Assembly (NCBI GenBank): GCA_963846575.1
Contig: CAWJWJ010000002.1
Coordinates: 2,816,001 to 2,880,000, forward strand
Origin: an uncultured Nitrospiraceae bacterium
GTDB taxonomy: Bacteria > Nitrospirota > Nitrospiria > Nitrospirales > Nitrospiraceae
DNA length: 64,000 bases
Reading direction: 5' to 3'
A program made the translations under genes and the position numbers. The first letter of the stretch is position 1, and the number at the start of each line of letters is the position of its first letter. This document shows, one piece after another, positions 1,765 to 24,020 of this stretch. The notes beneath the pieces are model-generated. The model was not told the origin of the DNA. It did no database searches and worked only from the letters and a program-made list of their open reading frames with translations.

Positions 1765-1790
1765 TGAACCCCACGGGCCTCCGTCCCGAC
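1765..1790 (+). promoter_or_regulatory. Putative ECF sigma promoter TGAACC-N16-CGAC
   Basis: tgaacc ccacgggcctccgtcc cgac, 50 nt before ATG 1841; the motif recurs across the locus. Confidence 0.7.
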
Positions 1791-1840
1791 TCACGAGCCA
1801 GGAACGGAAACCTTCGCAAGCATCGTCCGGGCAGGTTCCA

Positions 1841-2191
1841 ATGAGTACAGGATCACAACGAAGCCTCGCAGTGAGTCTCCTCATCCTTGCTACTCTGGGC
1901 GGTTGGATGACGGCTCAAGCCGGCGATCCTGGTACCGCCCGGATCACTGACAGGCGGCCGGCGGATGCACCCCCGGCCCATGGCCTCGGCAGGAGTATAG
2001 GCGCAACGGCAGAATCGCAAACCTCTATCCTCTCCGCCCACCCGGCAACCCCGGAATGCGATGGAGCAGCGGCTCCAGTTCCGGCGATCACCACGTTCCT
2101 GAACCGGGTCATGGGGCGCTCGCGCCCCGAGGAGGTCAGACTGTGCGCCGTTCCGCCAGACAGCGACAACAGAGACGGAGCCGACAAATAA
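1841..2191 (+). CDS. Small exported hypothetical protein (2 Cys)
   Basis: Sec-type signal peptide ending AQA; lies directly downstream of the promoter motif. Confidence 0.6.
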   Translation: MSTGSQRSLAVSLLILATLGGWMTAQAGDPGTARITDRRPADAPPAHGLGRSIGATAESQTSILSAHPATPECDGAAAPVPAITTFLNRVMGRSRPEEVRLCAVPPDSDNRDGADK

Positions 2192-2204
2192 TGCCGGCTG
2201 AGGA

Positions 2205-2230
2205 TGAACCACAGCGACCGGATCAACGAC
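2205..2230 (+). promoter_or_regulatory. Putative ECF sigma promoter TGAACC-N16-CGAC
   Basis: tgaacc acagcgaccggatcaa cgac, 55 nt before the DsbA-family ATG. Confidence 0.7.
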
Positions 2231-2285
2231 CCATGAATGCGGATACACAGCAGCAACCATCGTCATCAGATTTCAAGGAGGCCCG

Positions 2286-3035
2286 ATGAATCGCCGACGT
2301 TTCGTGAGTATCGCTACTCTGCCCGCCCTTATCCTGGCCTGCGCCCCCCAACTGAGCCTCGCGAAGGAGCCGACGCTCGATCCCGCAGCGAGACAATCGA
2401 TGGAGCAGGTGATCGAGCAGTACATCCGGACTCACCCGGAGGTCATCGAGCAGTCGCTCCAGGCCCTGGAAGCCAAGCGGGAAGCGGAGGAAAAGGAACG
2501 GCAAAAAGCCGCCCTGGGCAAACATCAACAGCAGCTCTTTCAAGATCCCTCGTCGCCGGTCAGCGGCAACCTGTCCGGCGAGGTCACCTTGGTCGAGTTT
2601 TTTGATTATCGCTGCGGGTACTGCAAGCGTGCGGCCGGAGCTGTGACCCAGCTGCAAAAGGACGACCCGCGCGTGCGCGTCGTCTACAAGGATCTGCCGA
2701 TTTTGGGCGAGGCATCCGAACTGGCAGCCAAGGCCGCACTGGCCTCGAAAGCCCAAGGCAAACACCAGGCCTTTCATGAAGCGCTGCTCGCCTCCAAAGG
2801 CGACATGACGAAAGAGTCCATCCTGGCGACCGCAGCCGAAGTCGGTCTGGATCGAACACGCCTGGAAGCCGACATGGCGAATCCCGAATGGCAAGCCGCG
2901 ATCGACCGCAATCGCGACCTGGCCAAAAACCTCGGCATCAGCGGCACGCCGGGGTTCATCGTCGGTACCGAACTCGTCCCCGGCGCGCTGGACGTCAACG
3001 GACTCAAGGAACTCATAGCCCGGGCAGGAAAATAA
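2286..3035 (+). CDS. DsbA-family thiol-disulfide oxidoreductase, Com1/ScsC-like
   Basis: EFFDYRCGYCK active site, GISGTPGF cis-Pro loop, N-terminal helical IEQYIRTHPEVI extension, signal peptide, AAGGAGG RBS. Confidence 0.92.
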   Translation: MNRRRFVSIATLPALILACAPQLSLAKEPTLDPAARQSMEQVIEQYIRTHPEVIEQSLQALEAKREAEEKERQKAALGKHQQQLFQDPSSPVSGNLSGEVTLVEFFDYRCGYCKRAAGAVTQLQKDDPRVRVVYKDLPILGEASELAAKAALASKAQGKHQAFHEALLASKGDMTKESILATAAEVGLDRTRLEADMANPEWQAAIDRNRDLAKNLGISGTPGFIVGTELVPGALDVNGLKELIARAGK

Positions 3036-3082
3036 ATCATGGTGAGGCAGACTCAGGAATCACTTCATTGAAGGAGGATCCT

Positions 3083-3568
3083 ATGACACCGCTTGCCACA
3101 GACTTCGGAATCGTCGGTTGTGCGGGGATCAAGAGTATGCGAGGCGCATGGCTTCCAATAGCCGGTCTGGGAGTCTGTAGCCTCTTGAGCGTCCTCCTGT
3201 CGGCGGACGTCGGTTGGGCAGCACCAAAGAAAGGAAAAACATCTGTGACGTGCAGATGTACCTGCATGTACCAGGACGAAATGGGGAAAGTCCATTATGG
3301 ACCATCGCAGGGTGTGCAGTTCACCGAATCGACAGGAGAAAGATGCCTTGACCACGCGTGTAAATCAGGCAGTCATAGCGGCAGGACCAGAGATTGTCTC
3401 TTTTCGGAAAACCCGAATCAAATGCGTGTCCCGCCGGGAGGGATACCAGGGCAGCTCCAACAGACACCGGCTTCACCGGGCGGCATGGCCGGCCCCGCTC
3501 CGGGAACAGTCTTGCGCCGGGGAGTCGAGGAGGAACAGCCCACGTCCTCAGAAAAAGAGGGGAAGTAA
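3083..3568 (+). CDS. Exported Cys-rich protein (6 Cys core) with C-terminal VLRRGVEEE tail
   Basis: AAGGAGG RBS before ATG 3083; signal peptide ending GWA; CxCxC core; Pro/Gly linker; acidic tail. Confidence 0.8.
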   Translation: MTPLATDFGIVGCAGIKSMRGAWLPIAGLGVCSLLSVLLSADVGWAAPKKGKTSVTCRCTCMYQDEMGKVHYGPSQGVQFTESTGERCLDHACKSGSHSGRTRDCLFSENPNQMRVPPGGIPGQLQQTPASPGGMAGPAPGTVLRRGVEEEQPTSSEKEGK

Positions 3569-3641
3569 GTGCCATTCCATCGGAGCAAACCTCAATGCTG
3601 AGATGGCGACCATGTGGCGGGGCAGCAGGGAGACCATCTTG

Positions 3642-4211
3642 ATGAGACGAGCATGGTACGGGCGGCACATGTTGTTCGGGACGAGCTGCATCCTGGCACT
3701 ATTGTTATCGGCCGCCCTGGAGGCCGCAGAGCCGAAGGATCAGCCGGCCACTCCTGAACAGACGTCTCAGTCACACCCGGTGCAGGAGCCGGATGAGCAT
3801 CCCCTCGCGCCGGTTGACCAGGATGACATCACAGGGCGCGGAATTGACCGCGGGCCGGTGGGAAAGAAGGGCATTCCGCCGTCCGGCAAGAACCCGCCGT
3901 CGCACCTCTGCCGTACGCTGACGCACATGATGACCCAATGCAAATGCTTCAATCAGGCGGAGTGCCAGCCTCTCTCCGCGCTCTTCCCCAACTCCTGCCC
4001 CGCCGGCAGCCAGCACTGCGAGTTTGTCCCGATGAGTCGCGGCACCATGCCTCCCCTCCCGCCGAATCTTTGCGGATATCAGGTGCCGCTGACGCTCACG
4101 GAATGTTCCTGCCATACCGCAGCCGAGTGCCAGTTGCTTTCGCCCTTCTGCCCGGGCTCCTGCCCGGCGGGGAGTCAGAGCTGCACCTGCCGGCCATTAC
4201 GAAGGGGATAA
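3642..4211 (+). CDS. Exported Cys-rich protein with acidic pro-region (ITGRGI) and duplicated Cys domain
   Basis: Signal peptide; two copies of LC..CxC....ECQ.LS...P.SCPAGSQ.C. Confidence 0.8.
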   Translation: MRRAWYGRHMLFGTSCILALLLSAALEAAEPKDQPATPEQTSQSHPVQEPDEHPLAPVDQDDITGRGIDRGPVGKKGIPPSGKNPPSHLCRTLTHMMTQCKCFNQAECQPLSALFPNSCPAGSQHCEFVPMSRGTMPPLPPNLCGYQVPLTLTECSCHTAAECQLLSPFCPGSCPAGSQSCTCRPLRRG

Positions 4212-4247
4212 CATGCTGTCAACGAGCTGGATGAGAGGATCACGGCT

Positions 4248-4679
4248 ATGAGGTATCGAATCACTGTCGTCTATCTCGGCACACTAGTCCTGATGCTGGC
4301 AGTGACCGTGCAGCAGGTCGCCCACGGTGCACCCAGAAGGCCGTCGAACAGTGCGGGTGCCTGTTCCATTTCTGCCGACAAATTCAATCAACTCGCAGCC
4401 AGGAACCCCGCCGGTGCTGCGGCCTGTAAGAACATGGCTGACAACGCGCAGACTCAGGGCGGGTCGTTCTCGTTCATGTGTGATAGCGCGACGGGTGAAA
4501 TCTCCTGCTGTAACGACTCGTCCTGCGTCTCGCTTGGCAGGGCGATGAAAGGCAAGCTTCCCGGCATAATGCCGGAACAGCCGCCCGGTTCCATACAAAT
4601 ACCTCCGCCTCCTTCAGGCGGCAAGCCCGGTACGGCTCCGCCGCCCGGCGGTCCGATGGCACCCTCGCAGGTTCGATAG
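4248..4679 (+). CDS. Exported Cys-rich protein (6 Cys) with Pro-rich tail
   Basis: GAGGA RBS, signal peptide ending AHG, even Cys count in the mature part. Confidence 0.8.
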   Translation: MRYRITVVYLGTLVLMLAVTVQQVAHGAPRRPSNSAGACSISADKFNQLAARNPAGAAACKNMADNAQTQGGSFSFMCDSATGEISCCNDSSCVSLGRAMKGKLPGIMPEQPPGSIQIPPPPSGGKPGTAPPPGGPMAPSQVR

Positions 4680-4744
4680 GTCTCAACCAACATCGTATCG
4701 GAAGGTAGACATCTTCCCCATTTCTCAATCGAAGGAGACAGACC

Positions 4745-5113
4745 ATGAAATTCGCACGGTCCACGGTTTTAGTCTGCATGTTGCTGTTTGCTGCCGGAGT
4801 GGCAGGCTGCGCGGACAATCCCGCCCCTGTGTCAACGATGCACAGCGAGGCGACGGTGGCCGGACATTCCGCTCAGGTACAGGAACGCGCGACGCCGATG
4901 CAGAAGTCGGGTTACATGAACGTCCCTCGGATGCAAGTGACACGGCCGCCGATCCCGCCGAGAGGCGGCGCCATGAATTTTTCCTGCGGCGTGACGTCGT
5001 GCACCTGCCATGGAGACGCCGATTGCAACAACATGTTCAGTTCAAACGTCTGCGGACATTCCGCGGTGTGCGATACCTCCAATGGTGTCGAATGCAGCTG
5101 TTTGAGGAACTGA
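4745..5113 (+). CDS. Cys-rich lipoprotein (8 Cys C-terminal domain) with VQERAT motif
   Basis: AAGGAG RBS; lipobox VAG-C. Confidence 0.8.
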   Translation: MKFARSTVLVCMLLFAAGVAGCADNPAPVSTMHSEATVAGHSAQVQERATPMQKSGYMNVPRMQVTRPPIPPRGGAMNFSCGVTSCTCHGDADCNNMFSSNVCGHSAVCDTSNGVECSCLRN

Positions 5114-5175
5114 CAGTACGCGTCCTGCCAAGCCGCAGGTGAATGATTTCACTCCGCAATTGAGAGGAGATAGTT

Positions 5176-5610
5176 ATGAGGACAAGCATCGTTCGACACA
5201 CTGGCACGGCATTGTTGATCCTGGGAACGTTGCTGGGGCAATCGTTTCCAGCGCAGGCCGTACCCATAAAAAATCCGGAGAACTGCCAAGGCCCCGTCAC
5301 CATCGGGGTCGCGACCTGTCCCGACAAACCCGGCCATTGGGTCGAGTGTCTCCCCAGCGGCGACTACATGTGCTGCACCGGCAACGCCCAAGGTGGTAAA
5401 GACTGTGAGCAGATCGAATCGTTCAAGAATCCCAGAGGCGGGGCGACGAGAATGCCCGGAGGCCTGCTTCAGAATGCGCCGGTGGTATCCCCGCCTCCAA
5501 GCCCACCCCGATTTCCAAGAGCGGGCATGAAGGCGCCGATCACGAGGCGCGGGGTCGAGGGTGAAGGCTCGACGCCATCGCCGACCGTCCCCGAGGAACA
5601 GGGCAAATAA
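5176..5610 (+). CDS. Exported Cys-rich protein (6 Cys) with ITRRGVEGE tail
   Basis: GAGGAG RBS; signal peptide ending AQA. Confidence 0.82.
   Translation: MRTSIVRHTGTALLILGTLLGQSFPAQAVPIKNPENCQGPVTIGVATCPDKPGHWVECLPSGDYMCCTGNAQGGKDCEQIESFKNPRGGATRMPGGLLQNAPVVSPPPSPPRFPRAGMKAPITRRGVEGEGSTPSPTVPEEQGK
5548..5610 (+). repeat. Shared 3' tail cassette, copy 1 (copy 2 at 6050-6112)
   Basis: Encodes RGV[ED]GEG[SA]TPSPTVPEEQGK* in both genes; the distal part is almost identical at DNA level. Confidence 0.9.
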
Positions 5611-5659
5611 AAACCAGCACGTCCGCATTGCGGAACGGGCCTGACTAAAGGAGTTTCCG

Positions 5660-6112
5660 ATGAACATCCCGAACAGAATGCTCGGGCAGAGTCGCCTGTC
5701 ATGCAGCCATCCCCGACGATCCGGCAAGGCACAAACCGTCAATCTCTTCATTTCTCTGATGACCCTGCTGGGGTTTTTTCTGTTGTGGAGCACCCCAACC
5801 ACCGCGTTCGCGGAACGAAAAACCTCGCGCCCCAAAACGGCCGAAGAAAAGAAGACGGATGCCTGCACGAAGCAGAATGTTGAATGTGCAAACGGCTGTA
5901 GAAACGGCACTCATCTACCCATAGGTTCCGCCTCGGACAAGATCCAAACCTGTGATGTGAATTGCGGCAATGCTTTCAACAGATGTATGGCCGCCATGAG
6001 GGGTGGGCCGGCAGGAACATTCTCCGGCACAAACGGCCCCGTCCTGCGCCGCGGCGTCGACGGGGAAGGTGCCACGCCATCTCCGACCGTCCCCGAGGAA
6101 CAGGGCAAGTAG
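5660..6112 (+). CDS. Exported Cys-rich protein (CX6CX3C...CX3CX6C) with VLRRGVDGE tail
   Basis: AAGGAG RBS; long signal peptide ending AFA; helical-hairpin-type Cys spacing. Confidence 0.8.
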   Translation: MNIPNRMLGQSRLSCSHPRRSGKAQTVNLFISLMTLLGFFLLWSTPTTAFAERKTSRPKTAEEKKTDACTKQNVECANGCRNGTHLPIGSASDKIQTCDVNCGNAFNRCMAAMRGGPAGTFSGTNGPVLRRGVDGEGATPSPTVPEEQGK

Positions 6113-6181
6113 ATCGACTGGGAGTTCATCACGTTCCGCCCACGCCGCGGGCATGACGCGCTTGCGGCAGAGGAGGCCATC

Positions 6182-6601
6182 ATGATGCACGCGATTCGAC
6201 CGCTCATGATCCTGGTGGTGCTGGTTCTGTGGACTTTCTCGACGAACCCGGCCTGGGCCGTGCCGAAACTCACGCCCGGCAGCAAGCGGTATTGCTCATG
6301 CACCTGCGCGACACAGGACAGTATCCTGTTCACTCCGTCCTGGGAGAAGCGGTATGACTGCGGCCTCGCCAACAACAAAAAATGCAGGCGAGAAAAAGAC
6401 GGCATGACCGGCAAATTGCACAGCTGCATGGAATGCGAGAAAACGAACAACGGTGGCATGTTCTGCGTCAACCCCGGGCTGGCTACGAAGCCCCCGGGTC
6501 GCGTTCCCGGCGGCAAACTCGAACAGATTGTCCCGCGCGGCATCGAAGGCACACAGGAGATCGAACCGCCGCCCCTGGAATCCGGGGAAAAAGAGAAGTA
6601 A
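6182..6601 (+). CDS. Exported Cys-rich protein (8 Cys) with IVPRGIEG tail
   Basis: GAGGAGG RBS; signal peptide ending AWA; paralog of 7101..7616 (PKL.PG..YCSC.C...WEK). Confidence 0.82.
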   Translation: MMHAIRPLMILVVLVLWTFSTNPAWAVPKLTPGSKRYCSCTCATQDSILFTPSWEKRYDCGLANNKKCRREKDGMTGKLHSCMECEKTNNGGMFCVNPGLATKPPGRVPGGKLEQIVPRGIEGTQEIEPPPLESGEKEK

Positions 6602-6643
6602 CCCCTTTTTCAATCGGTCACGACAAAAGGAGACACAGGAGCC

Positions 6644-7045
6644 ATGACTCATCCTCGTCCCAATTATTGGAGTGGCGGTCTGGCCGTCGGCGTGGTGCTG
6701 GTCCTCGTGACGTCGTTCAGTTGGGCTGCCCCCAACACCGGCAGCGGGCCGCAGAAAACCGAGAAGCAGTGCAAAGACGAACAGGCTAAGTGCAAGAAGG
6801 ACTGCGACCAGTTGATCGACATCGGCAACAACGTCAAAAACTGCAAGGACCGCTGTACGGATGGTTATGTCATTTGCACTCCGGCGCGAGGCACCGTGCC
6901 GCCAGGCACTAGATTCGGCACGGTGCGGCCATATGGTCTCACCAAACAAAACGCGCCGGTTATCCGGCGCGGCATCGAGGGCGAGACACCTGAGGATTCC
7001 GCGCCCAGCACTCACGGCTCATCGGTACCACAGAGTCCGCAGTAA
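6644..7045 (+). CDS. Exported Cys-rich protein (CX6CX3C...CX3CX6C) with VIRRGIEGE tail
   Basis: AGGAG RBS; signal peptide ending SWA; same Cys spacing as 5660..6112. Confidence 0.82.
   Translation: MTHPRPNYWSGGLAVGVVLVLVTSFSWAAPNTGSGPQKTEKQCKDEQAKCKKDCDQLIDIGNNVKNCKDRCTDGYVICTPARGTVPPGTRFGTVRPYGLTKQNAPVIRRGIEGETPEDSAPSTHGSSVPQSPQ
6949..6990 (+). repeat. 42-bp tail cassette, copy 1 (copy 2 at 7535-7576)
   Basis: aaacgc[g/c]ccggtt[a/t]tccggcgcggcatcgagggcgagacacc, 2 mismatches between copies. Confidence 0.9.
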
Positions 7046-7100
7046 ATGGGAGCCGACGAACGTTAACTCTATCGCCAGACACAGCGAGGAAGGGACCACC

Positions 7101-7616
7101 ATGCAGAATCTGCCGTGCATCCATCGCAGCCACGTGAAGGGCTTGTCAATTGGACTTCTTGGGTTAGCGCTGATCATAGGATGGGCCGAGGTCAGTCTGG
7201 CGTTGCCGAAGTTAAAACCGGGAAAAACCTACTGCAGTTGTAGTTGCAAGACCTTCTCGAAAGGCGTGGGGTTGGACTGGGAGAAGGTCGCAAGCTGCAG
7301 TCTGAACGGAAAGAGCTGCAAAGGGAAAAATAGCGCCGGGGTCTTGGAAGACGGCGTCTTGCAGCACTGCAATGAATGTAGGGCCGATTCTTCGGGCCAG
7401 GGTTACTCGAGCTGTACGCCCGTCAAAGACCTGAGTAGACCGAACTTGGGCGGGACGACTCCCCCGGTCCTTCCCGGCACGCTCGACCCGGGCTCGCGGC
7501 AACCCTCCGTAGCCCCGTTCTCACATCAAGGCACAAACGCCCCGGTTTTCCGGCGCGGCATCGAGGGCGAGACACCGGCTCCGTCTTCCACGGAATCGGG
7601 CAACTCAGGAAAGTAA
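7101..7616 (+). CDS. Exported Cys-rich protein (8 Cys) with VFRRGIEGE tail
   Basis: Purine-rich RBS before ATG 7101; signal peptide ending SLA; paralog of 6182..6601. Confidence 0.82.
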   Translation: MQNLPCIHRSHVKGLSIGLLGLALIIGWAEVSLALPKLKPGKTYCSCSCKTFSKGVGLDWEKVASCSLNGKSCKGKNSAGVLEDGVLQHCNECRADSSGQGYSSCTPVKDLSRPNLGGTTPPVLPGTLDPGSRQPSVAPFSHQGTNAPVFRRGIEGETPAPSSTESGNSGK

Positions 7617-7638
7617 CAATTCGGAGAGGAAAGCGAGC

Positions 7639-8718
7639 ATGGCGACGGGAACGACTCAACTGATCACACAGGCGGTTCTAGCAATCGGGCTCTCGACGGC
7701 CCTCCTCACCGGAGCGAAGGCTGACACCAATCCCTCGGCCCCTGACGCCCCGACTCACGAAGAGCCGGCGCCACCAATTACCGAAGCGGAGGCGGCAGAG
7801 GGCGGAGAAGTGCAGGAACGGGCGGTCATCCGCGACCATCGGACGATGCCCGGGACCTTCAGGCCCTCCACTGCTCCCCCATCGGCAGCCACCACCGCTC
7901 CCAAAACCACGATACCCGGCGTTGTCGCGCCGATGGACGGACAACTGCTCCGACCGGACCGACACCAGGCCCCGACCGCCAACCTGACCGTGGTCGCCAA
8001 TGGCTTGCGGTTGAAGCACAAGAGCCTGACCACACTCATCGTCGCGCCTCCCGATTTGCCCGTCACCCGGCCGGTCGAAATCAGCATCGGGTATTACTCC
8101 CCGACCGGCAATCAGCGGATCACGCAGTCCTACGTGCGATCGACCGGGAACCGGTTTCTCTACAACGACAAGGAAGCGGACGGAAAAGCACGTCACATGA
8201 CCATCAGCGTGTCCCTGAGGGAACAGTTGCCAAACGGTGAATGGGCGACCTACGCACTGCCCTGGCAGGCCGATCTGGATCCTCTGTACGACGTGGCGAT
8301 GGGTCCGTTCGCCTTCGACTTGATCAGCAAATGCGACGCCGCCGGAAAAAGCGAAATCCTTTTCGCGTGGCACTCGCCGGAGGGCCAATACCATAAGGTC
8401 AGATTCTCCACCCGCGCCGGATCACGAACCACCATTGGAGCCTTTGCCTGGTCCCGGCCGGAAGTGAGTTGGTCTCAGCGGCTCAACCGCGAGGAACCGG
8501 AGTTTTACGATGAAGATAACGCCGTCACGGAGATGTTGTGGACCTGCCTCCCGGCCGGGTGCGGTTTTCAACTCAATCCCCCCAACTCGAATCACCTCCT
8601 GACGGCCAGGACACAACTGATGAAGGGCAATTTGAAGGCCCGTAACGACAACTGCCAGGCCTATTTTGAGTACCAGATCACTAAAACGCTCCGCTTCTAT
8701 CCCTACCTTGAGCCTTGA
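7639..8718 (+). CDS. Exported beta-rich protein with acidic pro-region ending VQERAV
   Basis: Signal peptide ending AKA; paralog of 12714..13715 (APTANLT..AN.L.L.HKSL, DLDPL.D, C...GKSEI.F.W.SP). Confidence 0.85.
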   Translation: MATGTTQLITQAVLAIGLSTALLTGAKADTNPSAPDAPTHEEPAPPITEAEAAEGGEVQERAVIRDHRTMPGTFRPSTAPPSAATTAPKTTIPGVVAPMDGQLLRPDRHQAPTANLTVVANGLRLKHKSLTTLIVAPPDLPVTRPVEISIGYYSPTGNQRITQSYVRSTGNRFLYNDKEADGKARHMTISVSLREQLPNGEWATYALPWQADLDPLYDVAMGPFAFDLISKCDAAGKSEILFAWHSPEGQYHKVRFSTRAGSRTTIGAFAWSRPEVSWSQRLNREEPEFYDEDNAVTEMLWTCLPAGCGFQLNPPNSNHLLTARTQLMKGNLKARNDNCQAYFEYQITKTLRFYPYLEP

Positions 8719-8728
8719 GGAGGTCGCC

Positions 8729-9172: not shown

Positions 9173-9185
9173 CGGCTGAGACAAT

Positions 9186-9211
9186 TGAACCTCGGGCCAT
9201 ACGGCCCCGAC
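9186..9211 (+). promoter_or_regulatory. Putative ECF sigma promoter TGAACC-N16-CGAC
   Basis: caattgaacc (same 10-mer as at 1761), a 16-nt spacer, then cgac; intergenic. Confidence 0.72.
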
Positions 9212-10423: not shown

Positions 10424-10443
10424 GGATGGGAAAGGAGTTCATC

Positions 10444-16591: not shown

Positions 16592-17635
16592 ATGAGACTT
16601 GTGAGGATTTCTGTCTGTGGTGTTGGACTGGCGTTCTGCCTGATGATGAGTATGGCGACCCCACAGGGTGCATGGGCATCCGGCAGATTGCTGACAATTG
16701 AGGAAGAGTATTGTTACAAATTCGCCTTGCAAAAAGTCATTCTTTCCCCCACGCCTTCCACCTACTTATTTACCGGAACATGCGACCTGGCCCATACACG
16801 CCTACTTCTCCCCGTTAAGGTCACGTATACCACTGTGGGCAGGTACGACCCCACGAACGGGAACACCACGGAAGAGATTAGTGTGCCCCCGCCCGCGATC
16901 AACGAACCCTCCCGACCCTACGGCCGGTTTTTCGCCTCCATGCGTTGTGCTGCGGATCCGTGGCGGGACCGCAATGTGAAGTGCGATCAGGTCGTCGCCT
17001 CGGTTAATCCCCCCGCGAGTGCCTACCCGCCCAATCAATCGGGGGATCTTTCAAGAAGCTTGATCAGGCAAATCTTTGATCAGATCACCAAGTACTCCCT
17101 ACGGCCGTACACCTCGTCTCTCACCAGCGATCAGAAAAAAGTGGTCGATGCGCAATATGATGCGGCTCTGGCCTCCGAACGGAGATCCCAACAGCTCCAG
17201 CAAGGGGCCAAGAAAACAGAGGGGACATCCTACAGCGCAGGCCTCTCGCCCTCCGTGCTGTCGCCCGCGAGCGGACAAACGGTCGTAGCGCAAACGCCGG
17301 TGCTGATCAAGCTGTCGCCGCCCAAGGGGTGGAATGTGACGGGGTACATGGTCAATATTCAGAGAAAAGATGCGAAGGGGATCTGGGTTCATCACACCAC
17401 CATTCCCGTGAGCGCGGCCGAGGCGCAATCACCCACCGGATACATGGGGTTCGGCAACGGCGCGCCACCGGCATTCTTGATCTTCCCCGGCGCATGGCGG
17501 CTCAACGCCCAGGCCTCGTCTCCCAAACAGTCCGGCACGAGTGATTGGATTCAGTTTTACGCGACGGCCTATCAGGGACCGGTGCAGCAGGCGGCCCCCA
17601 AAAATGGAGCCCACCTTCAGTTCAAGATCCCCTGA
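16592..17635 (+). CDS. Exported hypothetical protein, paralog 2
   Basis: AAGGAG RBS; signal peptide; tandem duplicate of 15358..16407. Confidence 0.85.
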   Translation: MRLVRISVCGVGLAFCLMMSMATPQGAWASGRLLTIEEEYCYKFALQKVILSPTPSTYLFTGTCDLAHTRLLLPVKVTYTTVGRYDPTNGNTTEEISVPPPAINEPSRPYGRFFASMRCAADPWRDRNVKCDQVVASVNPPASAYPPNQSGDLSRSLIRQIFDQITKYSLRPYTSSLTSDQKKVVDAQYDAALASERRSQQLQQGAKKTEGTSYSAGLSPSVLSPASGQTVVAQTPVLIKLSPPKGWNVTGYMVNIQRKDAKGIWVHHTTIPVSAAEAQSPTGYMGFGNGAPPAFLIFPGAWRLNAQASSPKQSGTSDWIQFYATAYQGPVQQAAPKNGAHLQFKIP

Positions 17636-17728: not shown

Positions 17729-18712
17729 TTACCGCGGCAGGTATTTCACGACATAGTCCGTGCCGTGGAAAGACGATTCGATGACCTGGATCTGGGCGGG
17801 GCTCATGGGGTTGATACCGGCCTGCATAAGCAGATCGCTACGGAGGGTCTGCCAGACCACCTGATCGAACTGGCTGCGGGTTTGCGGATGGCTGAGAGCT
17901 TCGCGCACACCCGTCTCAATGGCGTTGGCGAGACTCTCGAGGTATTTCTTGGACACGTCGCAGATGTTGATCGGAAACAGCACATCGAACCAATAGACGC
18001 ATTTGTCCTGCGCTTTCAACCCTCCGCGAAATCCGGTCCGCACGGCTTGATAGGTCGGAAACCCCCCTTGGTTGGTCGTGGGGATGATGAAGATATCGAC
18101 AATGGCGTTCTCGCCCACGGTATCACCGACCGCTTGATCGCCCTCCGGCGAGTAGTCGCGGTAATAGGTCTTGAATTGTAACGAGGGAAAATGAAACTCC
18201 AAATGGAGTTCCGTGCCTTCCGACTTGACGACCGGCGGATTCGAGAGGCCATTGGCATGCACGTACACACGGCCTCCATTTGAAGCCTCATGCACATAGG
18301 GCGGAACCGTGAATCGTCCGGCCAGACTGCGCCCGATGGTAAAGTTCGAATCGATTTGGCCGCGCAAATTGGTCAGTTGCACGAACGACTTCGAGAGATC
18401 TCCGCCGAGGAGCAGCGCGAGCGGAATTTTTTTGGTGAGAGGCGCGGGAGGCGGCGACTGGTATCGACCGGGCGCGGCACCCTGCGGAGCCAGCCCGTGC
18501 GGCATCGGCTGTTGTCCCGGTGGTGGCGCCGTGTGGGCCTGGCCCGGTGAGAGATTCGGTTGGGCCGGAACCGACGGGGTGTTGGAGCGAGGCGGAAACA
18601 CCTGCCCGAGGGCCGGGGCATCACTCCCCCCGGCGAGCACCACACCCGTCACCAGCATCCAGAGGCCGGCCGTACGCATCGTCGTTTTCATGCGATCCGT
18701 GACGAGCCTCAC
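17729..18712 (-). CDS. Exported hypothetical protein with Pro-rich N-terminal linker
   Basis: Signal peptide; directly follows the upstream stop at 18715; alternative start at ATG 18691. Confidence 0.8.
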   Translation of the reverse strand: MRLVTDRMKTTMRTAGLWMLVTGVVLAGGSDAPALGQVFPPRSNTPSVPAQPNLSPGQAHTAPPPGQQPMPHGLAPQGAAPGRYQSPPPAPLTKKIPLALLLGGDLSKSFVQLTNLRGQIDSNFTIGRSLAGRFTVPPYVHEASNGGRVYVHANGLSNPPVVKSEGTELHLEFHFPSLQFKTYYRDYSPEGDQAVGDTVGENAIVDIFIIPTTNQGGFPTYQAVRTGFRGGLKAQDKCVYWFDVLFPINICDVSKKYLESLANAIETGVREALSHPQTRSQFDQVVWQTLRSDLLMQAGINPMSPAQIQVIESSFHGTDYVVKYLPR

Positions 18713-18714: not shown

Positions 18715-20313
18715 CTATTGGTGTTTGAACCAGCGAGTGACCCGCACGTCCTCACCGGGCTTCGCCGCGACGTAGGACAGCGCCGTGACCTGGGCCGGCT
18801 GTTGTGCCTCATCCCGCACCAGCGTCGCATGACCGGCCTGAGTTTTTCCGAACCCGTTGGGGAGCACCGCCGGCTCCTCGACCTGGGCAGCCGCCTGCCC
18901 CGCAGGCCGCTGCTGCCCCGCGAGTTGTGTCAGGATCTCCTCCAGATCGGTACGTCTCGCCGGTGATGCCACCAGAAACAAGGTCTCCACCCCCTTGAAC
19001 TGATCCAGCGTGAACCAGTAGGGCCCGTCTGGAAAGGCCTGTTCGGTTTCGGGCTTCAGGGGATTGACGACCGTGCCGTCGGCGACGGGGAAAATCGGCT
19101 GCGCCCAGCCGGAACCATCCACCGACACGACATAGACGAAACACTCGCAGTTCGTGCGCACGACCAGCTTGAAGCGGTCGCCTTCCGGTCCGCCCTTCAG
19201 CGCTTCACCGTCCTGCATCAGGGAGACTTCTTTTCCGGTCGGAGTCGTCACCTGACGGATCAGCGCGACATCCAACGTGACCGGCTCCGCCGGTCCCGGC
19301 ACCGACCGCGTATAGATCTGACCGGGGTATCCCACGCCCATATTCGGCGCTTGTCCCTGGTAGCCATATTGCTGCCCGCCCATCGGCTGTTGATAGCCCT
19401 GCATGGGCTGCTGTTGGTACCCCGCCGGCATGCCCTGTTGCTGATAACCCTGCATCCCCTGTTGCTGGTAGGGATCCATCGGCTGCTGGTACGCCCCGCC
19501 CATGGCCTGTTGCATCGGTTGTTGCCCATAACCCGGCATGGCCTGACCGCCGGGGTACCCGGGAGCCATCGGCTGTCCCATCGTTCCAGGGGCCGCGGCA
19601 GGATAACCCGGCTGCGGAGGCAGGTTCTGCCCGCCCGGATAGCCCGGTTGCGGCGGATAGCCGCCCATCTGTCCTCCGTATTGGCCCCCATACTGTCCGC
19701 CATATTGCCCGCCGTACTGCTGGTTCATTCCGTAGGCCGGAGCCTGGACGTTCATGCCAGGCACGGAGGCGTAGGGATTGTTCGGATCGTAATACTGTCC
19801 GGCCTGGCCTTGGTAGCCGTACCCCGAACTCTGCGCGGCTCCATACCCGCCCGTTCCGCCGTACCCATAGGCCTGCTGCCCGTAGCCTCCCGGTGGATAG
19901 CCGGCGCCAGGCATCGCGCCGGTGGGATTGTAGGGATCGACATAGCTGCCGCCATATCCAGCGGCGCCGGACTGGCCCGCCATCCCGGGCTGTCCCCCCA
20001 TCTGATTCATCATCGCCTGCTGCTGTTGCTGCAACATCACCGGCGGAACCAGCGCGGCCGGCGACGTCCCCATGGGCAAACCCATGGCCACGTAGGGCGT
20101 ACTCAGACGCACCATGAGCCGATTCATGTCTTCGGAATATTTCCCGCCGTAGTTCTTATTGCCGGTCATGAGCAGATTCCGGGCAAACTCGATTCCAGCG
20201 GGGATGAGGAAGGGAGCGGCAGCGCAGGAGGCTAACAGGAGAAAAGGCAGAAATGCCAGAATTCCCGCATGTTGACCGGTAGAAACTCTGGGCGACCTGT
20301 GACATCCGTTCAT
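18715..20313 (-). CDS. Lipoprotein with Q/G/Y/P/M low-complexity region and C-terminal DUF4384-like domain
   Basis: Lipobox LAS-C; C-terminal GDRFKLVV....CFVYVVSVDGSG....IFP...G.ETLFLVAS pattern. Confidence 0.8.
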   Translation of the reverse strand: MNGCHRSPRVSTGQHAGILAFLPFLLLASCAAAPFLIPAGIEFARNLLMTGNKNYGGKYSEDMNRLMVRLSTPYVAMGLPMGTSPAALVPPVMLQQQQQAMMNQMGGQPGMAGQSGAAGYGGSYVDPYNPTGAMPGAGYPPGGYGQQAYGYGGTGGYGAAQSSGYGYQGQAGQYYDPNNPYASVPGMNVQAPAYGMNQQYGGQYGGQYGGQYGGQMGGYPPQPGYPGGQNLPPQPGYPAAAPGTMGQPMAPGYPGGQAMPGYGQQPMQQAMGGAYQQPMDPYQQQGMQGYQQQGMPAGYQQQPMQGYQQPMGGQQYGYQGQAPNMGVGYPGQIYTRSVPGPAEPVTLDVALIRQVTTPTGKEVSLMQDGEALKGGPEGDRFKLVVRTNCECFVYVVSVDGSGWAQPIFPVADGTVVNPLKPETEQAFPDGPYWFTLDQFKGVETLFLVASPARRTDLEEILTQLAGQQRPAGQAAAQVEEPAVLPNGFGKTQAGHATLVRDEAQQPAQVTALSYVAAKPGEDVRVTRWFKHQ

Positions 20314-20339: not shown

Positions 20340-20364
20340 GTCGCCGCGATCCGGAGAAGGTTCA
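20340..20364 (-). promoter_or_regulatory. Putative ECF sigma promoter TGAACC-N15-CGAC
   Basis: Minus strand tgaacc ttctccggatcgcgg cgac, 26 nt before ATG 20313. Confidence 0.7.
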
Positions 20365-20489: not shown

Positions 20490-21074
20490 ATGAGCGCGAC
20501 TCACGAGCACAACGCGGTGGAGGGCACGCTGGTGATGCGGGCGGCAGGCGGAGACACCCACGCTTTCGAAGCTCTGTACCGACTCTACGAAAAGCGGGTG
20601 TTCCATTATATCTGCACCTTCGTGCGCGACCATTCGCTAGCGGAAGAGGTGGTCGGGGAAGTCATGCTGGCCGTGTGGCGCGGAGCCTGCCACTTTGCGA
20701 ATCAGTCTCGCGTCTCGACATGGATCTTCGGTATCGCCCGTCACAAGGCCCTCGATGCCGTCCGGCGAAGCGGCCGGCCTGATCACAAGGCCGTGACGAT
20801 CGACGACCTGCCCGATCTTCCCAGCCAACAGGACACGCCGATCGAACAGATTCAACGGGAACAGCTCGCCACCGTGATGCGGCAGGCGCTTGGTGCCCTG
20901 TCGCCCGAACATCAGGAAGTGTTGCGATTGGTGTTTTACGAGGAACTTCCCTACGAAGACATCGCGCTGCTGCTCAGCATTCCGGAAAATACCGTCAAAA
21001 CCCGCGTGTTTTACGCCAAGCAACAGCTGAAACGACAGATCAATCGCTCGATCTCCAGAGAGACCGTCTTATGA
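20490..21074 (+). CDS. ECF RNA polymerase sigma factor
   Basis: Region 2 (GD..AFE.LY, AEEVVGEV, STWIFGIARHKALD) and region 4 (LPYEDIA.LL.IPENTVKTRVFYAK). Confidence 0.95.
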   Translation: MSATHEHNAVEGTLVMRAAGGDTHAFEALYRLYEKRVFHYICTFVRDHSLAEEVVGEVMLAVWRGACHFANQSRVSTWIFGIARHKALDAVRRSGRPDHKAVTIDDLPDLPSQQDTPIEQIQREQLATVMRQALGALSPEHQEVLRLVFYEELPYEDIALLLSIPENTVKTRVFYAKQQLKRQINRSISRETVL

Positions 21075-21748
21075 CGACGCCGAACGAAGCCTCCATGGCC
21101 CACCCGGCTGCGACACTCCTTCCCTGGTATCTGACCGGCACCTTGAAGGAGGCCGAACGACGAACGGTGGATGAGCACCTGGCGACCTGCGCCGACTGTC
21201 GCGCTGAACTGGACAGTCTGGCCCAGCTGCGTGCTCCGCTGCAGGCGGCGCTGGCCGCGGAGCCCACGCCGGTCCTGCATGTGAAGGAGGCCGTGATGGC
21301 GCAGGTCCGGACGGAACGGGAGGCTCGTCACAGTCCCAATGCGTCGCCATCTGATGGATGGGCCGGCCATGCGGTGGAGCAGTGGTTTCGCAATCTGTTC
21401 GCACCGCGGTGGGTCCCCGCACTCGCCGCGACCCTGTTGATCGGTCAATTCGCCCTGCTCCTGTGGACGGCCGGCCCGCAAACCATCCCGCCCCCTGACC
21501 AGGTCACCAGCCGGGGTGTTTCGCCGGCGGCCGTCCGCGTCATGTTGGTGTTCCAGAAGTCGGCATCCGAGGCGCGCATCCGGGCCGTCATTTTGAACTT
21601 GAAGGGCCGCCTCGTCGATGGGCCCACCGCGGACGGCGTCTATACCATCACCATCCCGGCGGCCGAATCGGCAGGACTCGAGGCCAGCCTCAAGCGGCTG
21701 CAGCAACAAACCGATCTGATCCGGAAGGCAGAGTTGGTCCGCCGATGA
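21071..21748 (+). CDS. zf-HC2 (ZAS) membrane-anchored anti-sigma factor
   Basis: ATGA overlap with the sigma gene; LLPWY..G.L...E...V..HL..C..C; one TM helix; small C-terminal periplasmic domain. Confidence 0.9.
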   Translation: MTTPNEASMAHPAATLLPWYLTGTLKEAERRTVDEHLATCADCRAELDSLAQLRAPLQAALAAEPTPVLHVKEAVMAQVRTEREARHSPNASPSDGWAGHAVEQWFRNLFAPRWVPALAATLLIGQFALLLWTAGPQTIPPPDQVTSRGVSPAAVRVMLVFQKSASEARIRAVILNLKGRLVDGPTADGVYTITIPAAESAGLEASLKRLQQQTDLIRKAELVRR

Positions 21749-21770
21749 ACCTTTACCCGCGCGATCCGAC
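21746..21770 (+). promoter_or_regulatory. Putative ECF sigma promoter TGAACC-N15-CGAC
   Basis: tgaacc tttacccgcgcgatc cgac, 27 nt before the protease ATG. Confidence 0.7.
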
Positions 21771-21797
21771 CCACGGATCAGGACACGAGGACAGGAC

Positions 21798-24020
21798 ATG
21801 ACCCCACGATCTTTCTGCTGCATGACGCTCGCCTGTGCCATCCTGACCATGGGCGGTGTCGGGCGGGCGGCCGATTCCACCAAGACGGCCACGAAACGCG
21901 CGTTGCTCATCGGCATCAACCGCTACCAGGCGCTGCCCTCGCTCAACGGCTCCCTCAACGACATCGAAACGATGCGGCAGGTCCTCACGACGCGGTGGGG
22001 ATTTCAACCGCAACGCATCACGATGCTCACCGACCAGGCTGCCACCCGCGCGGGGATGCTGGCCGCATTCGACAAGCTGGCCAAGGAGACGGGCCCGGAT
22101 GATGTGGTGTACGTGCACTATTCCGGCCATGGATCCCAGGTCGAAGATTTCAGCGGCGATGAGACGGACGATCACCTGGACGAGACACTGGTTCCGCACG
22201 ACGGCCGGACGGCCAATGTGCGGGATATTACCGATGACGAGTTGGATGAGATCTTCTCCCGGCTCCAGGCCCGAAGCGTCTTGATCGTGCTCGATTCCTG
22301 CCATTCCGGCACGGCGACGAGATCTCTCGATATCCGTACCCGTTCCGTCCCCAAGGACAGCAGGGTAGAGTTGTACCGCCCCTCCGCCGTGCAGACCCGC
22401 CAGGTGGTGCCGGTCGTGGCTTCACGGTATGTCCTCATGAGCGGGGCCGCGGCCAATCAGGAAGCCCTGGATGGTCCGGTTGAAGGACGGTATCACGGAT
22501 TTTTCTCCTACTCCCTGGCCAAGAGCATCGGGAGCGCCGACCGGGCCGCGACTCCGCGCGACATTTTTGCCGGCGTCGAACGCGAAATGCGGCGCATCCA
22601 AACCCATTTCGGTCGCACGTCCATGCCGGAGCCGCAACTGGAAGCTCCCCCCGTTCTGTTGGACAGGCCGCTCCTTCCTTCCTTGAAGGCCCCGGCGTCC
22701 CCGGCGGAGGCTGGCGCCCCGGCGCGTCTTCCCTGGGTGGAAGTGAAAGCCGCCGGAGGCGATGGGTTCCTGCTGCTCCAGGGAGTTCCCCTCGGTGCAC
22801 AGCCCGGGTCCAGCTGGACGGTCTTTCCGCCGAACGAGACGGCATTCGTTCCGGGGCAGGCGCTCGGGGTCCTGACCGTCACGCAGGTTCGTGGGAAAGA
22901 CGCGCTGGCCAAGCCACAGAGTGACCCGTTCTCCATTCCCCCCGGCGCGAGGGCCGTGGCGTTTCTTCCTGCGGCTCCACCGGAGCGCATCCCGATACGC
23001 CTGTTGGATGTCCCGCCCGGCCAACGTTCCAAGATCGAAGCGGTGTTGAAACAGTACGGACGCGACGCCCAGATCGTGGAGGCCGGGCAACCGGCGCAGT
23101 ACCTCGTCGAGGTGAAGGACAACCGCCTGCAACTCTATTCAGCCGACGGCTTACAGGTCATCAGTTCATTCGCCATGGACGGCCCCCAATGGGGCGCCGG
23201 CCTCGCCCTGGTCCTCTCACGTTCCGCGAATGCCTCCGAACTCCTGACCCTGGACAACCCCTCCTCTCAACTGAAGCTCGCCGTCAAAGTGGCGGGCAGC
23301 GCACGCCGGGCCACGCGGGGGATCGCCGTCGTCGCGGATACGCAGCCGGCTCAGTATCATATTCGCCGGAATGGGGAACCCAGAAGCTCGTCCAACAGTC
23401 TGCAACTGGAAATTCAGGCGAGCGGCGATAGCTACATCACGATCGTCGATGTCGATTCCGAGGGCCATCTCAATCTGCTGTTTCCCAACGACCATCAACA
23501 ACCGGCCTTCTATCCCGATGGGCACGTGCGGGCAGGCGAACAGGTGACGATTCCCGATTCTCCACAATCCGGCAACCACGCGGGCTTCCACTGGGATTAT
23601 GCCGATCCGGCCGGGATCGATACCGTTCGTGTCTTCGCGTCCACCGACCTGGACACGGCCCGGGCCATTCGTCAGCGGGTCCGATCCGTTCCGGCACCCG
23701 CCGCCGGTACCGCCCTGGTCATGACCCGATCGGTGGTCGCCAAAGAAGTCATGGACCTTCGACGCGACCTGAGCAAAGTCGCCAGCCGGGGGCTCACGCC
23801 CATTTACGATCCCACGCCGGCCGCCCTCACCAACCAGCCACCGCCGGCCCCTGATCTTCCCCAGCCGCCGGCTCCGCCGGTCGGCGTTCCACCGCCCCAG
23901 CAACAGGCCATGGAGGCATCGAAGCCTCCCGCCCCGGTCCATCCGGTGACGCAAACGGTGGCCGCCGTTCCATCGTCCGATTGGACGGCCACATCGCTCA
24001 CCATTCAGGTCGAACCCTAA
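21798..24020 (+). CDS. Exported caspase-family (peptidase C14) protease with C-terminal DUF4384-like domain
   Basis: KRALLIGIN.Y, L.G..ND, catalytic HYSGHG and DSCHSG, Q.EA and P.PQL motifs; N-terminal signal peptide. Confidence 0.92.
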   Translation: MTPRSFCCMTLACAILTMGGVGRAADSTKTATKRALLIGINRYQALPSLNGSLNDIETMRQVLTTRWGFQPQRITMLTDQAATRAGMLAAFDKLAKETGPDDVVYVHYSGHGSQVEDFSGDETDDHLDETLVPHDGRTANVRDITDDELDEIFSRLQARSVLIVLDSCHSGTATRSLDIRTRSVPKDSRVELYRPSAVQTRQVVPVVASRYVLMSGAAANQEALDGPVEGRYHGFFSYSLAKSIGSADRAATPRDIFAGVEREMRRIQTHFGRTSMPEPQLEAPPVLLDRPLLPSLKAPASPAEAGAPARLPWVEVKAAGGDGFLLLQGVPLGAQPGSSWTVFPPNETAFVPGQALGVLTVTQVRGKDALAKPQSDPFSIPPGARAVAFLPAAPPERIPIRLLDVPPGQRSKIEAVLKQYGRDAQIVEAGQPAQYLVEVKDNRLQLYSADGLQVISSFAMDGPQWGAGLALVLSRSANASELLTLDNPSSQLKLAVKVAGSARRATRGIAVVADTQPAQYHIRRNGEPRSSSNSLQLEIQASGDSYITIVDVDSEGHLNLLFPNDHQQPAFYPDGHVRAGEQVTIPDSPQSGNHAGFHWDYADPAGIDTVRVFASTDLDTARAIRQRVRSVPAPAAGTALVMTRSVVAKEVMDLRRDLSKVASRGLTPIYDPTPAALTNQPPPAPDLPQPPAPPVGVPPPQQQAMEASKPPAPVHPVTQTVAAVPSSDWTATSLTIQVEP

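Follow-up and report, generated by a model that had tools for sequence, protein, structure and literature searches.

A Nitrospira accessory island joins an ECF sigma factor, an anti-sigma factor and an exported caspase homologue to an array of candidate proproteins with an arginine-centred motif

The locus described here lies in the genome of an uncultured member of the Nitrospiraceae (G000; 4.2 Mb in two contigs) and was analysed in a window of 64 kb that corresponds to C2:2816001-2880000; homologues of window proteins, wherever they carry a name, are named Nitrospira. Between window positions 1765 and 24020 an array of 22 co-oriented plus-strand genes (within 1841-17635) is followed by a core module that encodes a sigma factor of the extracytoplasmic function (ECF) type, an anti-sigma factor, an exported caspase homologue of peptidase family C14 and a lipoprotein with a DUF4384 domain. 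Families were assigned to window proteins by profile searches against Pfam and NCBIfam, and comparisons covered 41 close relatives, a wider family sample of 201 genomes and 79 protease loci from a collection-wide scan. Some of these 79 loci probably come from the same genomes as the G-numbered relatives, so that counts over them are not independent; tallies over the family sample include three unpublished genomes (G046, G092, G114), none of which is positive for the protease orthologue or high in motif count, and no specific claim rests on them.

The array comprises 20 exported proteins, a DsbA/ScsC-like protein (g02) and a second apolipoprotein N-acyltransferase (Lnt; g20), encoded with intergenic gaps that are mostly 0-70 bp and with Shine-Dalgarno-like sequences ahead of the genes. 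All 20 exported proteins have a hydrophobic, signal-like N-terminus, with a lipobox in two of them (g06, g17). A first-pass annotation of this DNA had reported about 20 co-oriented exported or lipoprotein genes, most with even-numbered Cys cores, a DsbA/Com1 gene at their head and lnt inside the array, and all of this was borne out: 20 such proteins were found, and matches to DSBA with ScsC_N and to TIGR00546 lie at the two places named. Pfam and NCBIfam returned no family for 18 of the 20 exported proteins, the exceptions being g17 (DUF7910) and g10, on which there is a sub-threshold Csp1 match. Paralogue sets were identified by BLASTP for g03/g09/g11 (which g07, g08 and g10 join via their tails), g12/g19, g14/g15/g16 and g21/g22.

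The array opens with g01 (1841-2191), an exported protein of 116 residues with 2 Cys, and g02 (2286-3035), a thiol-disulfide oxidoreductase with CGYC (PF01323, 93.7 bits; ScsC_N, E 4.9e-07). These are followed by nine small exported Cys-rich proteins (g03-g11, 3083-7616), by g12 (7639-8718), in which a signal peptide and an acidic disordered pro-region precede a beta-sandwich domain (residues ~110-359), and by g13 (8729-9172), an exported protein with 12 Cys. The three exported paralogues g14, g15 and g16 (9288-10950) consist of an acidic pro-region, a cationic 6-Cys C-terminal part and a hydrophobic-Gln C-terminus, and g17 (11002-12240) is a lipoprotein whose pro-region leads into a DUF7910 or beta-trefoil-like domain (DUF7910, E 4e-13). 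Next are g18, with 6 Cys, and the g12 paralogue g19 (together 12278-13715), the Lnt gene g20 (13797-15347) and finally g21 and g22 (15358-17635), paralogous exported proteins of 350 residues that are 52% identical, strongly cationic and devoid of any family or motif. ESM Atlas look-ups with the mature part of g14 and with g21 returned unnamed clusters only (scores 0.83-0.88). The C-termini of two unrelated families, g14-g16 and g17, and of their homologues end in three hydrophobic residues and a Gln (LTIQ, VLMQ, LQIQ, AIIQ; in relatives also MIMQ, PIIQ and VVLQ), and the protease g26 ends in a conserved strand, ...SLTIQVEP (23982-24020); such an end may be a second short signal.

A peptide motif centred on Arg, with the core [VI]-x-x-R-[GAS]-[VIL], is found at the pro-piece junctions of 14-15 array proteins. 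It had first been described as a single recurrent motif, and its one core is real, but it occurs in two classes, one N-terminal and the other C-terminal. Class A, [VI]-[QE]-E-R-[AG]-[VI], stands 15-46 residues past the signal peptide behind an acidic linker rich in Pro, Ala and Ser in g06 (VQERAT, in a protein with a lipobox), g12 (VQERAV), g14-g16 ([VI][QE]ERAV), g17 (VQERGV), g18 (VQERAI) and g19 (IRERGV). Class B, [VI]-x-[RP]-R-G-[VI]-[ED]-G-E, is located 15-24 residues before the C-terminus of g03 and g07-g11 and is followed by an acidic tail. The N-terminal copy in g04 is degenerate (ITGRGI), and the g04 orthologues in G011 and G023 carry VQERG[VI]. Among open reading frames (ORFs) of at least 80 residues in the 4.2-Mb genome, the expression [VI][QRE]ER[AG]x for class A has 23 matches, 8 of them in the array, and [RP]RG[VI][ED][GE]x for class B has 8, of which 6 are in the array. 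Logos of class A (139 distinct instances) and class B (18 instances), drawn from this genome, its relatives and database homologues, gave the extended consensus sequences G-[ED]-[VI]-Q-E-R-[GA]-[VIL] and A-P-[VI]-x-R-R-G-[VI]-E-G-E, respectively, which have aliphatic-x-[ER]-R-[GA]-aliphatic in common. In the g12 family, 65 of 101 proteins match a strict expression, most others being near variants and some lacking the whole pro-region, and in the g09 family a P-R-[GS]-I-[ED] site and its tail are kept in 15 of the 16 proteins that a database search yielded (query included), the remaining one ending before the site. The motif is retained on unrelated mature domains (beta-sandwich, beta-trefoil-like and several Cys-rich types) while the linkers diverge. 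Such a motif is both real and specific.

The motif also marks a change in composition. When the proteins were divided at the signal-peptidase site and after the motif Arg, all 15 predicted pro-pieces were anionic (-2 to -8) and 19 of the 20 predicted mature parts were cationic (+1 to +12), the exception being g01 (-2); for comparison, a control set of 167 long genomic ORFs with a crudely predicted signal peptide has a net positive charge in just 26% of cases and exceeds +3 per 100 residues in 2%. The number of Cys is even in 20/20 predicted mature parts, which, together with conserved Cys spacing, fits disulfides. In the predicted model of g12, residues ~25-103, which contain the motif, have a low predicted local distance difference test (pLDDT) score, and the domain at 110-359 is predicted with pLDDT >90. 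Foldseek gave no match to this model at E <= 0.001, and a wide structural search returned generic FN3/Ig-like beta-sandwiches only (best Z 9.5 over 97 residues), so that no function is assigned to the domain. In some g12-family homologues (P0075-P0081, P0086, P0090, P0091, P0098) the signal peptide leads almost directly into the beta-sandwich with neither acidic linker nor motif, which suggests that the pro-region acts as a separable module. In the lipoproteins g06, g17 and g23, cleavage at this position would detach the folded portion from the lipid anchor or tether. The cationic charge, the disulfides, the beta-sandwich and lectin-like folds and the rapid turnover point to surface, matrix or antagonistic functions of the mature parts.

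Downstream of the array, the core module begins with two minus-strand genes. The lipoprotein g23 (18715-20313) has a long Q/G/Y/P-rich low-complexity tether, then IYTRSV and a DUF4384 domain. The gene g22b (17729-18712), for an exported protein of 327 residues with no Pfam family, starts 3 bp past the g23 stop codon; it is 72-83% identical in close relatives, occurs in 32 of the 79 protease loci, is absent at the empty site described below, and probably belongs to the module. On the plus strand, g24 (20409/20490-21074; the likely true start is the ATG at 20490) encodes a sigma factor made up of sigma-70 regions 2 and 4 only (PF04542, PF08281/PF04545; TIGR02937, 103 bits against a cut-off of 42.9). 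It overlaps by 4 bp with g25 (21071-21748), a single-pass anti-sigma factor of 225 residues that matches zf-HC2 only (PF13490, 34.8 bits), has HLATCADC, which fits H-x3-C-x2-C, shows the features of class I zinc-binding anti-sigma (ZAS) factors and possesses a periplasmic part of ~90 residues. The last gene, g26 (21798-24020, plus strand), encodes an exported protein of 740 residues with a Peptidase_C14 domain (PF00656, 99.6 bits against a cut-off of 21.4), DUF4384 and two beta domains. Its His-Cys dyad (HYSGHG and DSCHSG) is intact: across 70 orthologues the His is present in 69 and the Cys in all 70, and both are invariant in a 49-sequence alignment. The first-pass annotation had assigned these four families correctly, but the lipoprotein gene lies on the minus strand, divergent from the sigma gene, and g22b had been missed.

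Among solved structures, the folds that Foldseek placed closest to g26 are those of a caspase homologue from Geobacter, metacaspases 9 and 4 of Arabidopsis, Yca1 of yeast and MALT1 (E 4e-13 to 1e-9), all of which rank above Asp-specific caspases (caspase-6). From its family membership, g26 is taken to belong to the Arg/Lys-specific metacaspase/orthocaspase branch of C14 and would be expected to cleave after Arg or Lys, orthocaspases being described, in the accessible part of one study, as cutting after basic residues (PMC6426788). The same Arg-centred core recurs on the components of the module itself. In the anti-sigma factor it reads VTSRGV (21503-21520), and in an alignment of the G000 protein with 64 orthologues, down to 28% identity, V/I at -3, R, G/S/A and I/L/V are each present in 65/65 sequences; it stands ~10 residues outside the membrane helix as [VI]-x-[TES]-R-[GSA]-[ILV] within a variable linker, and in more distant Nitrospirales it becomes [VI]-x-E-R-G-[IV]-P, i.e. 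class A. The protease has three copies: R182 (IRTR/SV, 22332-22349), in [IV]-R-x-R-S-[VI]-P, 14 residues past the catalytic Cys168 (R in 70/70 orthologues, S/A in 69/70, V/I in 70/70); R507 (TR/GI, 23310-23327), in V-G-T-R-G-I before DUF4384 (69/70); and R664 (SR/GL, 23781-23798), in A-T-R-G-[IL] after DUF4384 (68/70). All three are invariant in the 49-sequence alignment, and in an AlphaFold model made from it (mean pLDDT 74.5) they fall in segments with pLDDT <50 (170-189, 503-515 and 665-723) between confident domains; invariant Arg residues within disordered linkers have the look of short functional motifs. In g23, [VI]-Y-P-R-[SG]-[VIL] directly precedes DUF4384, and Arg occupies this column in 32 of 54 sequences and is absent from the most distant ones. 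The occurrence of the motif on anti-sigma factor and protease, which the first-pass annotation had overlooked, points first to a role in signalling.

The motif could instead be a docking or recognition element, for example a ligand of DUF4384 or of another envelope factor, or the site of some other housekeeping protease, the caspase homologue then being a mere member of the regulon. Two core-module proteins, g23 and the protease, indeed have a DUF4384 domain, each with the motif beside it, and nothing ties the motif directly to the C14 active site. A complex predicted between residues 28-300 of the protease (p20 region) and residues 29-110 of g12 (pro-region) scored 0.03, which counts neither for nor against either reading. 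On the other hand, the C14 genes are the only protease genes in the island, and the best-kept copy in the protease, R182 (70/70), lies in a disordered linker right after the catalytic Cys, which is where caspase-family enzymes process themselves. The invariant residue of the motif is also an Arg, the P1 preference known for this branch of C14 according to the part of the literature cited above (PMC6426788). We consider docking, or cleavage by another protease, unlikely, and cleavage after the motif Arg by the C14 protease is the reading retained below.

A second recurrent element links array and module at the level of DNA. Promoter-like TGAACC-N15/16-CGAC sequences, of a form typical of ECF promoters, are located at 1765-1790 (plus strand, N16), 51 bp before g01; at 2205-2230 (plus, N16), before the DsbA gene g02; at 9186-9211 (plus, N16), before g14; at 20340-20364 (minus, N15), 27 bp before g23; and at 21746-21770 (plus, N15), where the site runs across the stop codon of the anti-sigma gene (21746-21748) and stands 27 bp ahead of the protease gene. 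The three N16 sites each stand 51-77 bp ahead of a start codon. That a promoter motif recurs here had been proposed before and was confirmed: the exact pattern, which was derived from three of the eight island sites, occurs 40 times genome-wide and 8 times in the 45-kb island against 0.43 expected (Poisson 3e-9). With one mismatch allowed, 12 sites were found in the window against 6.15 expected, a number reached in 2 of 100 shuffles and not regarded as above them; exact sites only were therefore used. The same motif is present at matching positions in G011, G013, G023 and G029, i.e. before g23, the protease, DsbA and the WD40-caspase gene of the upstream half of the island and within the arrays: sites orthologous to that of g23 are found in all four, those of DsbA and of the protease in G011, G013 and G023, and sites matching that of g14 lie inside the arrays of all four. 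Across 77 related loci (1.30 Mb), 152 sites were counted against ~10 expected from the G000 background, with a site before the protease ORF in 33/70 and before g23 in 34/52.

The locus is an accessory island of Nitrospira of ~42 kb, including a part upstream of the window. In G007 and G009, three genes stand side by side, a giant multicopper-oxidase-like gene (91% identical), DsbA (69-79%) and the counterpart of C2:2795973-2797301 (73-77%), and the G000 segment ~2797.7-2840.0 kb, except DsbA, is absent at the same site; no tRNA gene flanks the island. DsbA had been thought dedicated to the array, a view that did not survive the comparison: a single orthologue, 67-79% identical, is present in 10/10 genomes, 5 of which lack the island, and the gene stands at the empty site, so that it is a core gene. 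The 40 kb examined at the empty site of G007 and G009 contain no promoter site, and the core gene came to lead an array operon under a promoter that the island brought in. The half of the island that lies upstream of the window (L052, C2:2796001-2816000) encodes CHASE2, TPR, FecR-domain and beta-propeller proteins together with three more C14 proteins for export, of which one has DUF4384 and another is fused to WD40 repeats, and has three sites of the promoter pattern, one of them ~90 bp before the WD40-caspase gene.

The gene content might also suggest a response to copper or redox stress that a sigma factor for envelope stress would govern, with a ScsC-type protein, Cys-rich metal binders and a multicopper-oxidase-like neighbour. 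Such a response would account for the ScsC_N match on g02, for the weak Csp1-family match on g10 (18 bits against a cut-off of 100) and for the position of the oxidase-like gene next to that of the protease. This oxidase-like gene (window 24268-29181, minus strand) is a core gene at the border of the island; its product, an exported protein of 1637 residues, contains a single Cu-oxidase_3 domain and shows 91% identity between genomes of the genus. However, DsbA and the oxidase-like gene are both core genes and lie side by side at the empty site, so that their adjacency to the array reflects the insertion point; the Csp1 match is far under its cut-off, and the even Cys counts and conserved Cys spacing fit disulfides. 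This interpretation is very unlikely and was set aside on account of the core neighbours at the empty site.

The suggestion that Lnt is dedicated to the array has fared better. The array copy, g20 (TIGR00546, 255 bits against a cut-off of 132.9; LNT_N and CN_hydrolase), is the lower-scoring of two, and its WPE, YRKRLLVPFGE and ICWES elements supply what we take to be the Glu-Lys-Cys triad of Lnt (the Glu of WPE, the Lys of YRKRLLVPFGE and the Cys of ICWES). Two copies are present in all six array genomes (G000, G011, G013, G023, G029, G051) and one copy in each of five complete array-less genomes; the lower-scoring copy lies 7-21 kb from the protease in five of the six and on another contig in G029. 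This second copy, Lnt2, is island-specific.

Among the 41 close genomes, full-length orthologues of the protease were found in G011 and G013 (69% identical), G022 (78%, truncated where its contig stops) and G029 (54%, a genome that belongs to a different family within the order), and an orthologue broken by stop codons in G023. Those of the protease-bearing close genomes with enough contig have motif arrays, DsbA, the sigma/anti-sigma pair and g23 nearby. In G023 (C21:343-370 kb), the genes for the protease, g12, g13, g17, g23 and the anti-sigma factor are split into several frames (TGA/TAA within matches), which reflects either decay of the island or indel errors of the assembly. Most of the 79 loci found collection-wide carry the label Nitrospira or Nitrospirales. 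A few orthologues of the protease (43-55% identical), some of them accompanied by sigma and anti-sigma genes, are in bins labelled Steroidobacteraceae, Gammaproteobacteria, Burkholderiales, Solirubrobacteraceae and Spirochaetales, have no motif array within 10 kb and could represent horizontal transfer or mis-binning. Within 10 kb of the protease, ECF and anti-sigma genes are present in 65 of the 79 loci, g23 in 55 and at least one promoter site in 70, and motif-bearing ORFs number at least two in 8 loci, one in 11 and none in 60.

In the 201-genome sample, 38 genomes have a protease orthologue (E <= 1e-60), and a degenerate DNA pattern for motif A gave at least 9 one-strand matches in 15 genomes, 11 of them orthologue-positive. 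Tight one-strand clusters were seen in 10 positive genomes (G041, G051, G079, G100, G113, G133, G172, G184, G200, G201), 6-51 kb from the protease in 8/8 genomes with both on one contig, sharing its strand in 6 of them and lying opposite to it in G113 and G133; the four protease-negative genomes with high counts (G055, G057, G125, G210) have scattered matches only, and five complete orthologue-negative genomes of the genus have no cluster. Several positive genomes of the family have motif counts too low for an array (e.g. 0 and 1 in G189). Overall, motif arrays were found in 15 genomes, all with a protease orthologue, and no cluster in the 9 orthologue-negative genomes examined. The first-pass annotation had envisaged a self-contained pathway. 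The link between arrays and module holds in one direction, as arrays were seen only with the protease and never in the 9 negatives, but not in the other, the ECF/anti-sigma/protease core being far commoner than arrays: the ECF pair accompanies the protease widely (65/79), and array-like neighbourhoods are found at few of these loci (8/79). Since the module often occurs without them, the arrays are best described as a facultative output. Array content varies strongly between genomes and the island occupies a variable site, which suggests an accessory, fast-changing role.

These same features would be expected if the array were unrelated cargo at a recombination hot spot, its pro-regions spread by duplication, its likeness to the anti-sigma motif coincidental and its products ordinary periplasmic or surface proteins. 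The strong variation in array content, the existence of the module without arrays, the variable site around a core DsbA and the paralogy that accounts for part of the motif sharing all suit such a view. They are outweighed, in our assessment, by the retention of the motif on unrelated mature domains despite diverging linkers, by the promoter common to array operons and module genes, by the presence of clusters in 15 protease-positive genomes and their absence from the 9 protease-negative ones examined, and by a consistent anionic/cationic split at the motif that would not be expected by chance, and we regard unrelated cargo as decidedly unlikely.

Taken together, the gene content, motifs, promoters, co-occurrence and island structure, all of them read directly, are consistent with a model in which the protease cuts after Arg and thereby both fires the sigma switch and matures the array proteins, a model that we hold to be moderately probable. 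Its core would be a trans-envelope switch made up of the ECF sigma factor, the single-pass zinc-finger anti-sigma factor and the exported, putatively Arg-specific C14-DUF4384 caspase homologue, which would recognize one short code, aliphatic-x-x-Arg / small-aliphatic. The protease may first cut itself at its inter-domain linkers and so mature; it would then make a site-1 cut in the anti-sigma factor, immediately external to the membrane, after which ordinary intramembrane proteolysis would free the sigma factor. Once freed, the sigma factor would transcribe from the TGAACC-N15/16-CGAC promoters the protease gene, the operon of the DUF4384 lipoprotein, the upstream exported caspases and, in some lineages, long operons of Sec-exported proproteins. 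Oxidative folding of these proproteins is suggested by their even Cys counts and by the ScsC/DsbA-type gene at the head of the operon. An anionic N-terminal linker or a lipid/low-complexity tether would be removed at G-[ED]-[VI]-Q-E-R / [GA]-[VIL] in class A, and an anionic C-terminal tail at [VI]-x-R-R / G-[VI]-E-G-E, by the same protease, in class B, and the resulting cationic disulfide-rich or beta-sandwich/beta-trefoil proteins could act at the surface or in the matrix in binding, adhesion or an antimicrobial capacity. With a promoter type and a cleavage code common to arrays and module genes, induction would be coupled to maturation, and one may speculate that abundant array substrates compete with the anti-sigma factor and so damp the switch. 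Each proteolytic step, the promoter-reading role of the sigma factor and the roles of the mature proteins and of Lnt2 are deductions within this model. We only tentatively extend it to the idea that a single caspase-read code both fires an ECF switch and arms a fast-evolving arsenal of cationic disulfide-rich proteins, as a counterpart of caspase-gated signalling and defensin-like activation. That Lnt2 might N-acylate the Gly or Ala N-termini exposed by cleavage, in parallel to eukaryotic post-caspase N-myristoylation, is extremely unlikely.

Several observations weigh against this model. The strict motif is absent from 6 of the 20 array proteins (g01, which has GLGRSI, g05, g13, g21, g22 and, strictly, g04), and so short a core as [VI]xxR[GSA][VIL] would be met by chance ~0.1 times in a protein of 225 residues, as roughly estimated from usual residue frequencies, so that single occurrences mean little unless supported by alignment. 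The protease sites R507 and R664 could be kept for structural reasons. Signal peptides were judged by eye and with a hydropathy script, not with SignalP, and their cleavage points by eye. No promoter motif was found ahead of the sigma gene g24 itself, which is unusual for ECF sigma factors, and it is from linkage that g24 is proposed as the factor reading the TGAACC-N15/16-CGAC promoters. No outer-membrane export or secretion route is encoded in or near the island, so that 'release' to the outside is unsupported. Five distant module-positive genomes have no motif cluster anywhere (5/5), and the many genomes in which the module has no array mean that its primary role cannot be to mature array proteins.

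Elsewhere in the window, at 36246-39359 (minus strand), an AcrB-type RND transporter is present as three consecutive ORFs that cover profile positions 2-432, 432-692 and 693-1020, and an intact paralogue adjoins it at 33151-36249; the split copy is either a broken gene or a sequencing error.

The proposed switch falls within known kinds of system, namely the regulated proteolysis of anti-sigma factors and dedicated processing enzymes with families of substrates that share a cognate motif. In the sigmaE-RseA-DegS/RseP system of E. coli, an ECF sigma factor is set free once its single-pass anti-sigma factor has been cut at site 1 in the periplasm, as is proposed here; there, site-1 is cut by a serine protease activated by misfolded porin C-termini, whereas here the enzyme would be an operon-encoded caspase homologue whose outputs share its motif. 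Sortase/LPXTG, exosortase/PEP-CTERM and PorU with the C-terminal domain of the type IX secretion system (T9SS) each combine one enzyme, a clan CD cysteine peptidase in the case of PorU, with many co-occurring substrates that bear a short signal. The array resembles them in having one enzyme, many proteins with a short shared motif and co-occurrence across genomes, and differs in that there is no membrane-anchor sorting signal, the motif is N- or C-terminal and the enzyme is a C14 peptidase wired to a sigma switch. NCBIfam sorting-signal models matched no array protein, the class B tails are acidic with no hydrophobic helix, and the Haft-type arrangement of motif, transmembrane helix and basic tail (PEP-CTERM, GlyGly-CTERM) is thus not seen. 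Animal defensin precursors pair a cationic disulfide-rich mature part with an acidic pro-segment, which balances its charge and is cleaved off at a basic residue; the likeness is one of layout only, the array proteins being bacterial and Sec-exported. Characterized orthocaspases such as MaOC1 of Microcystis are reportedly cytoplasmic and without defined physiological substrates. With these g26 shares its prokaryotic C14 domain, the His-Cys dyad and the presumed cleavage after basic residues, and it differs in being exported, in carrying DUF4384 and in having a candidate substrate set.

The closest described relative of the switch is the ECF pair DdvS/DdvA of Myxococcus xanthus, whose anti-sigma factor has, in the accessible parts of the report, a periplasmic caspase-like domain proposed to self-cleave (PMC11506125). 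In both cases a zinc-finger transmembrane anti-sigma factor holds the ECF factor, a periplasmic caspase fold is proposed to start proteolysis and an accessory island is controlled, but according to the same parts the caspase-like TPR-CHAT of DdvA is fused to the anti-sigma factor and its His-Cys is incomplete, whereas the present enzyme is encoded apart from it, as an exported C14 protein whose dyad is intact, and g25 contains no periplasmic TPR-CHAT fusion; the Ddv regulon moreover consists of defence by the cyclic-oligonucleotide-based antiphage signalling system (CBASS) and CRISPR (PMC11506125), and the one proposed here of secreted proproteins. Asplund-Samuelsson et al. (2012) noted metacaspase genes in predicted operons with sigma-70 factors in Myxococcus and other genera and a high metacaspase density in Nitrospirae, a purely genomic remark that, in the sections of the survey available, includes no motif, promoter, anti-sigma substrate or substrate array (PMC3501461). 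Neither caspases nor C14 nor DUF4384 are mentioned in the main text of the paper that reclassified ECF factors, and in the portion of its supplement available DUF4384 appears solely in connection with ECF25 anti-sigma factors; other parts of that supplement may describe an ECF group that has a caspase neighbour. Literature searches returned no description of a motif-sharing substrate-like array, a shared promoter, the anionic/cationic proprotein layout or an island-specific Lnt.

To our knowledge, the abundant caspase homologues of bacteria have almost no defined physiological substrates. The comparative evidence presented here names an explicit candidate cleavage code and three candidate substrate classes, namely the protease itself, the anti-sigma factor and 14-15 secreted proproteins of this genome, with many more in relatives. 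If the model is true, a caspase-type enzyme would be both the site-1 protease of an ECF switch and the maturase of the output of that switch, and in Nitrospira, a nitrite-oxidizing genus and key nitrifier of wastewater and soils, the cationic disulfide-rich proteins so produced may shape aggregation, competition or surface chemistry.

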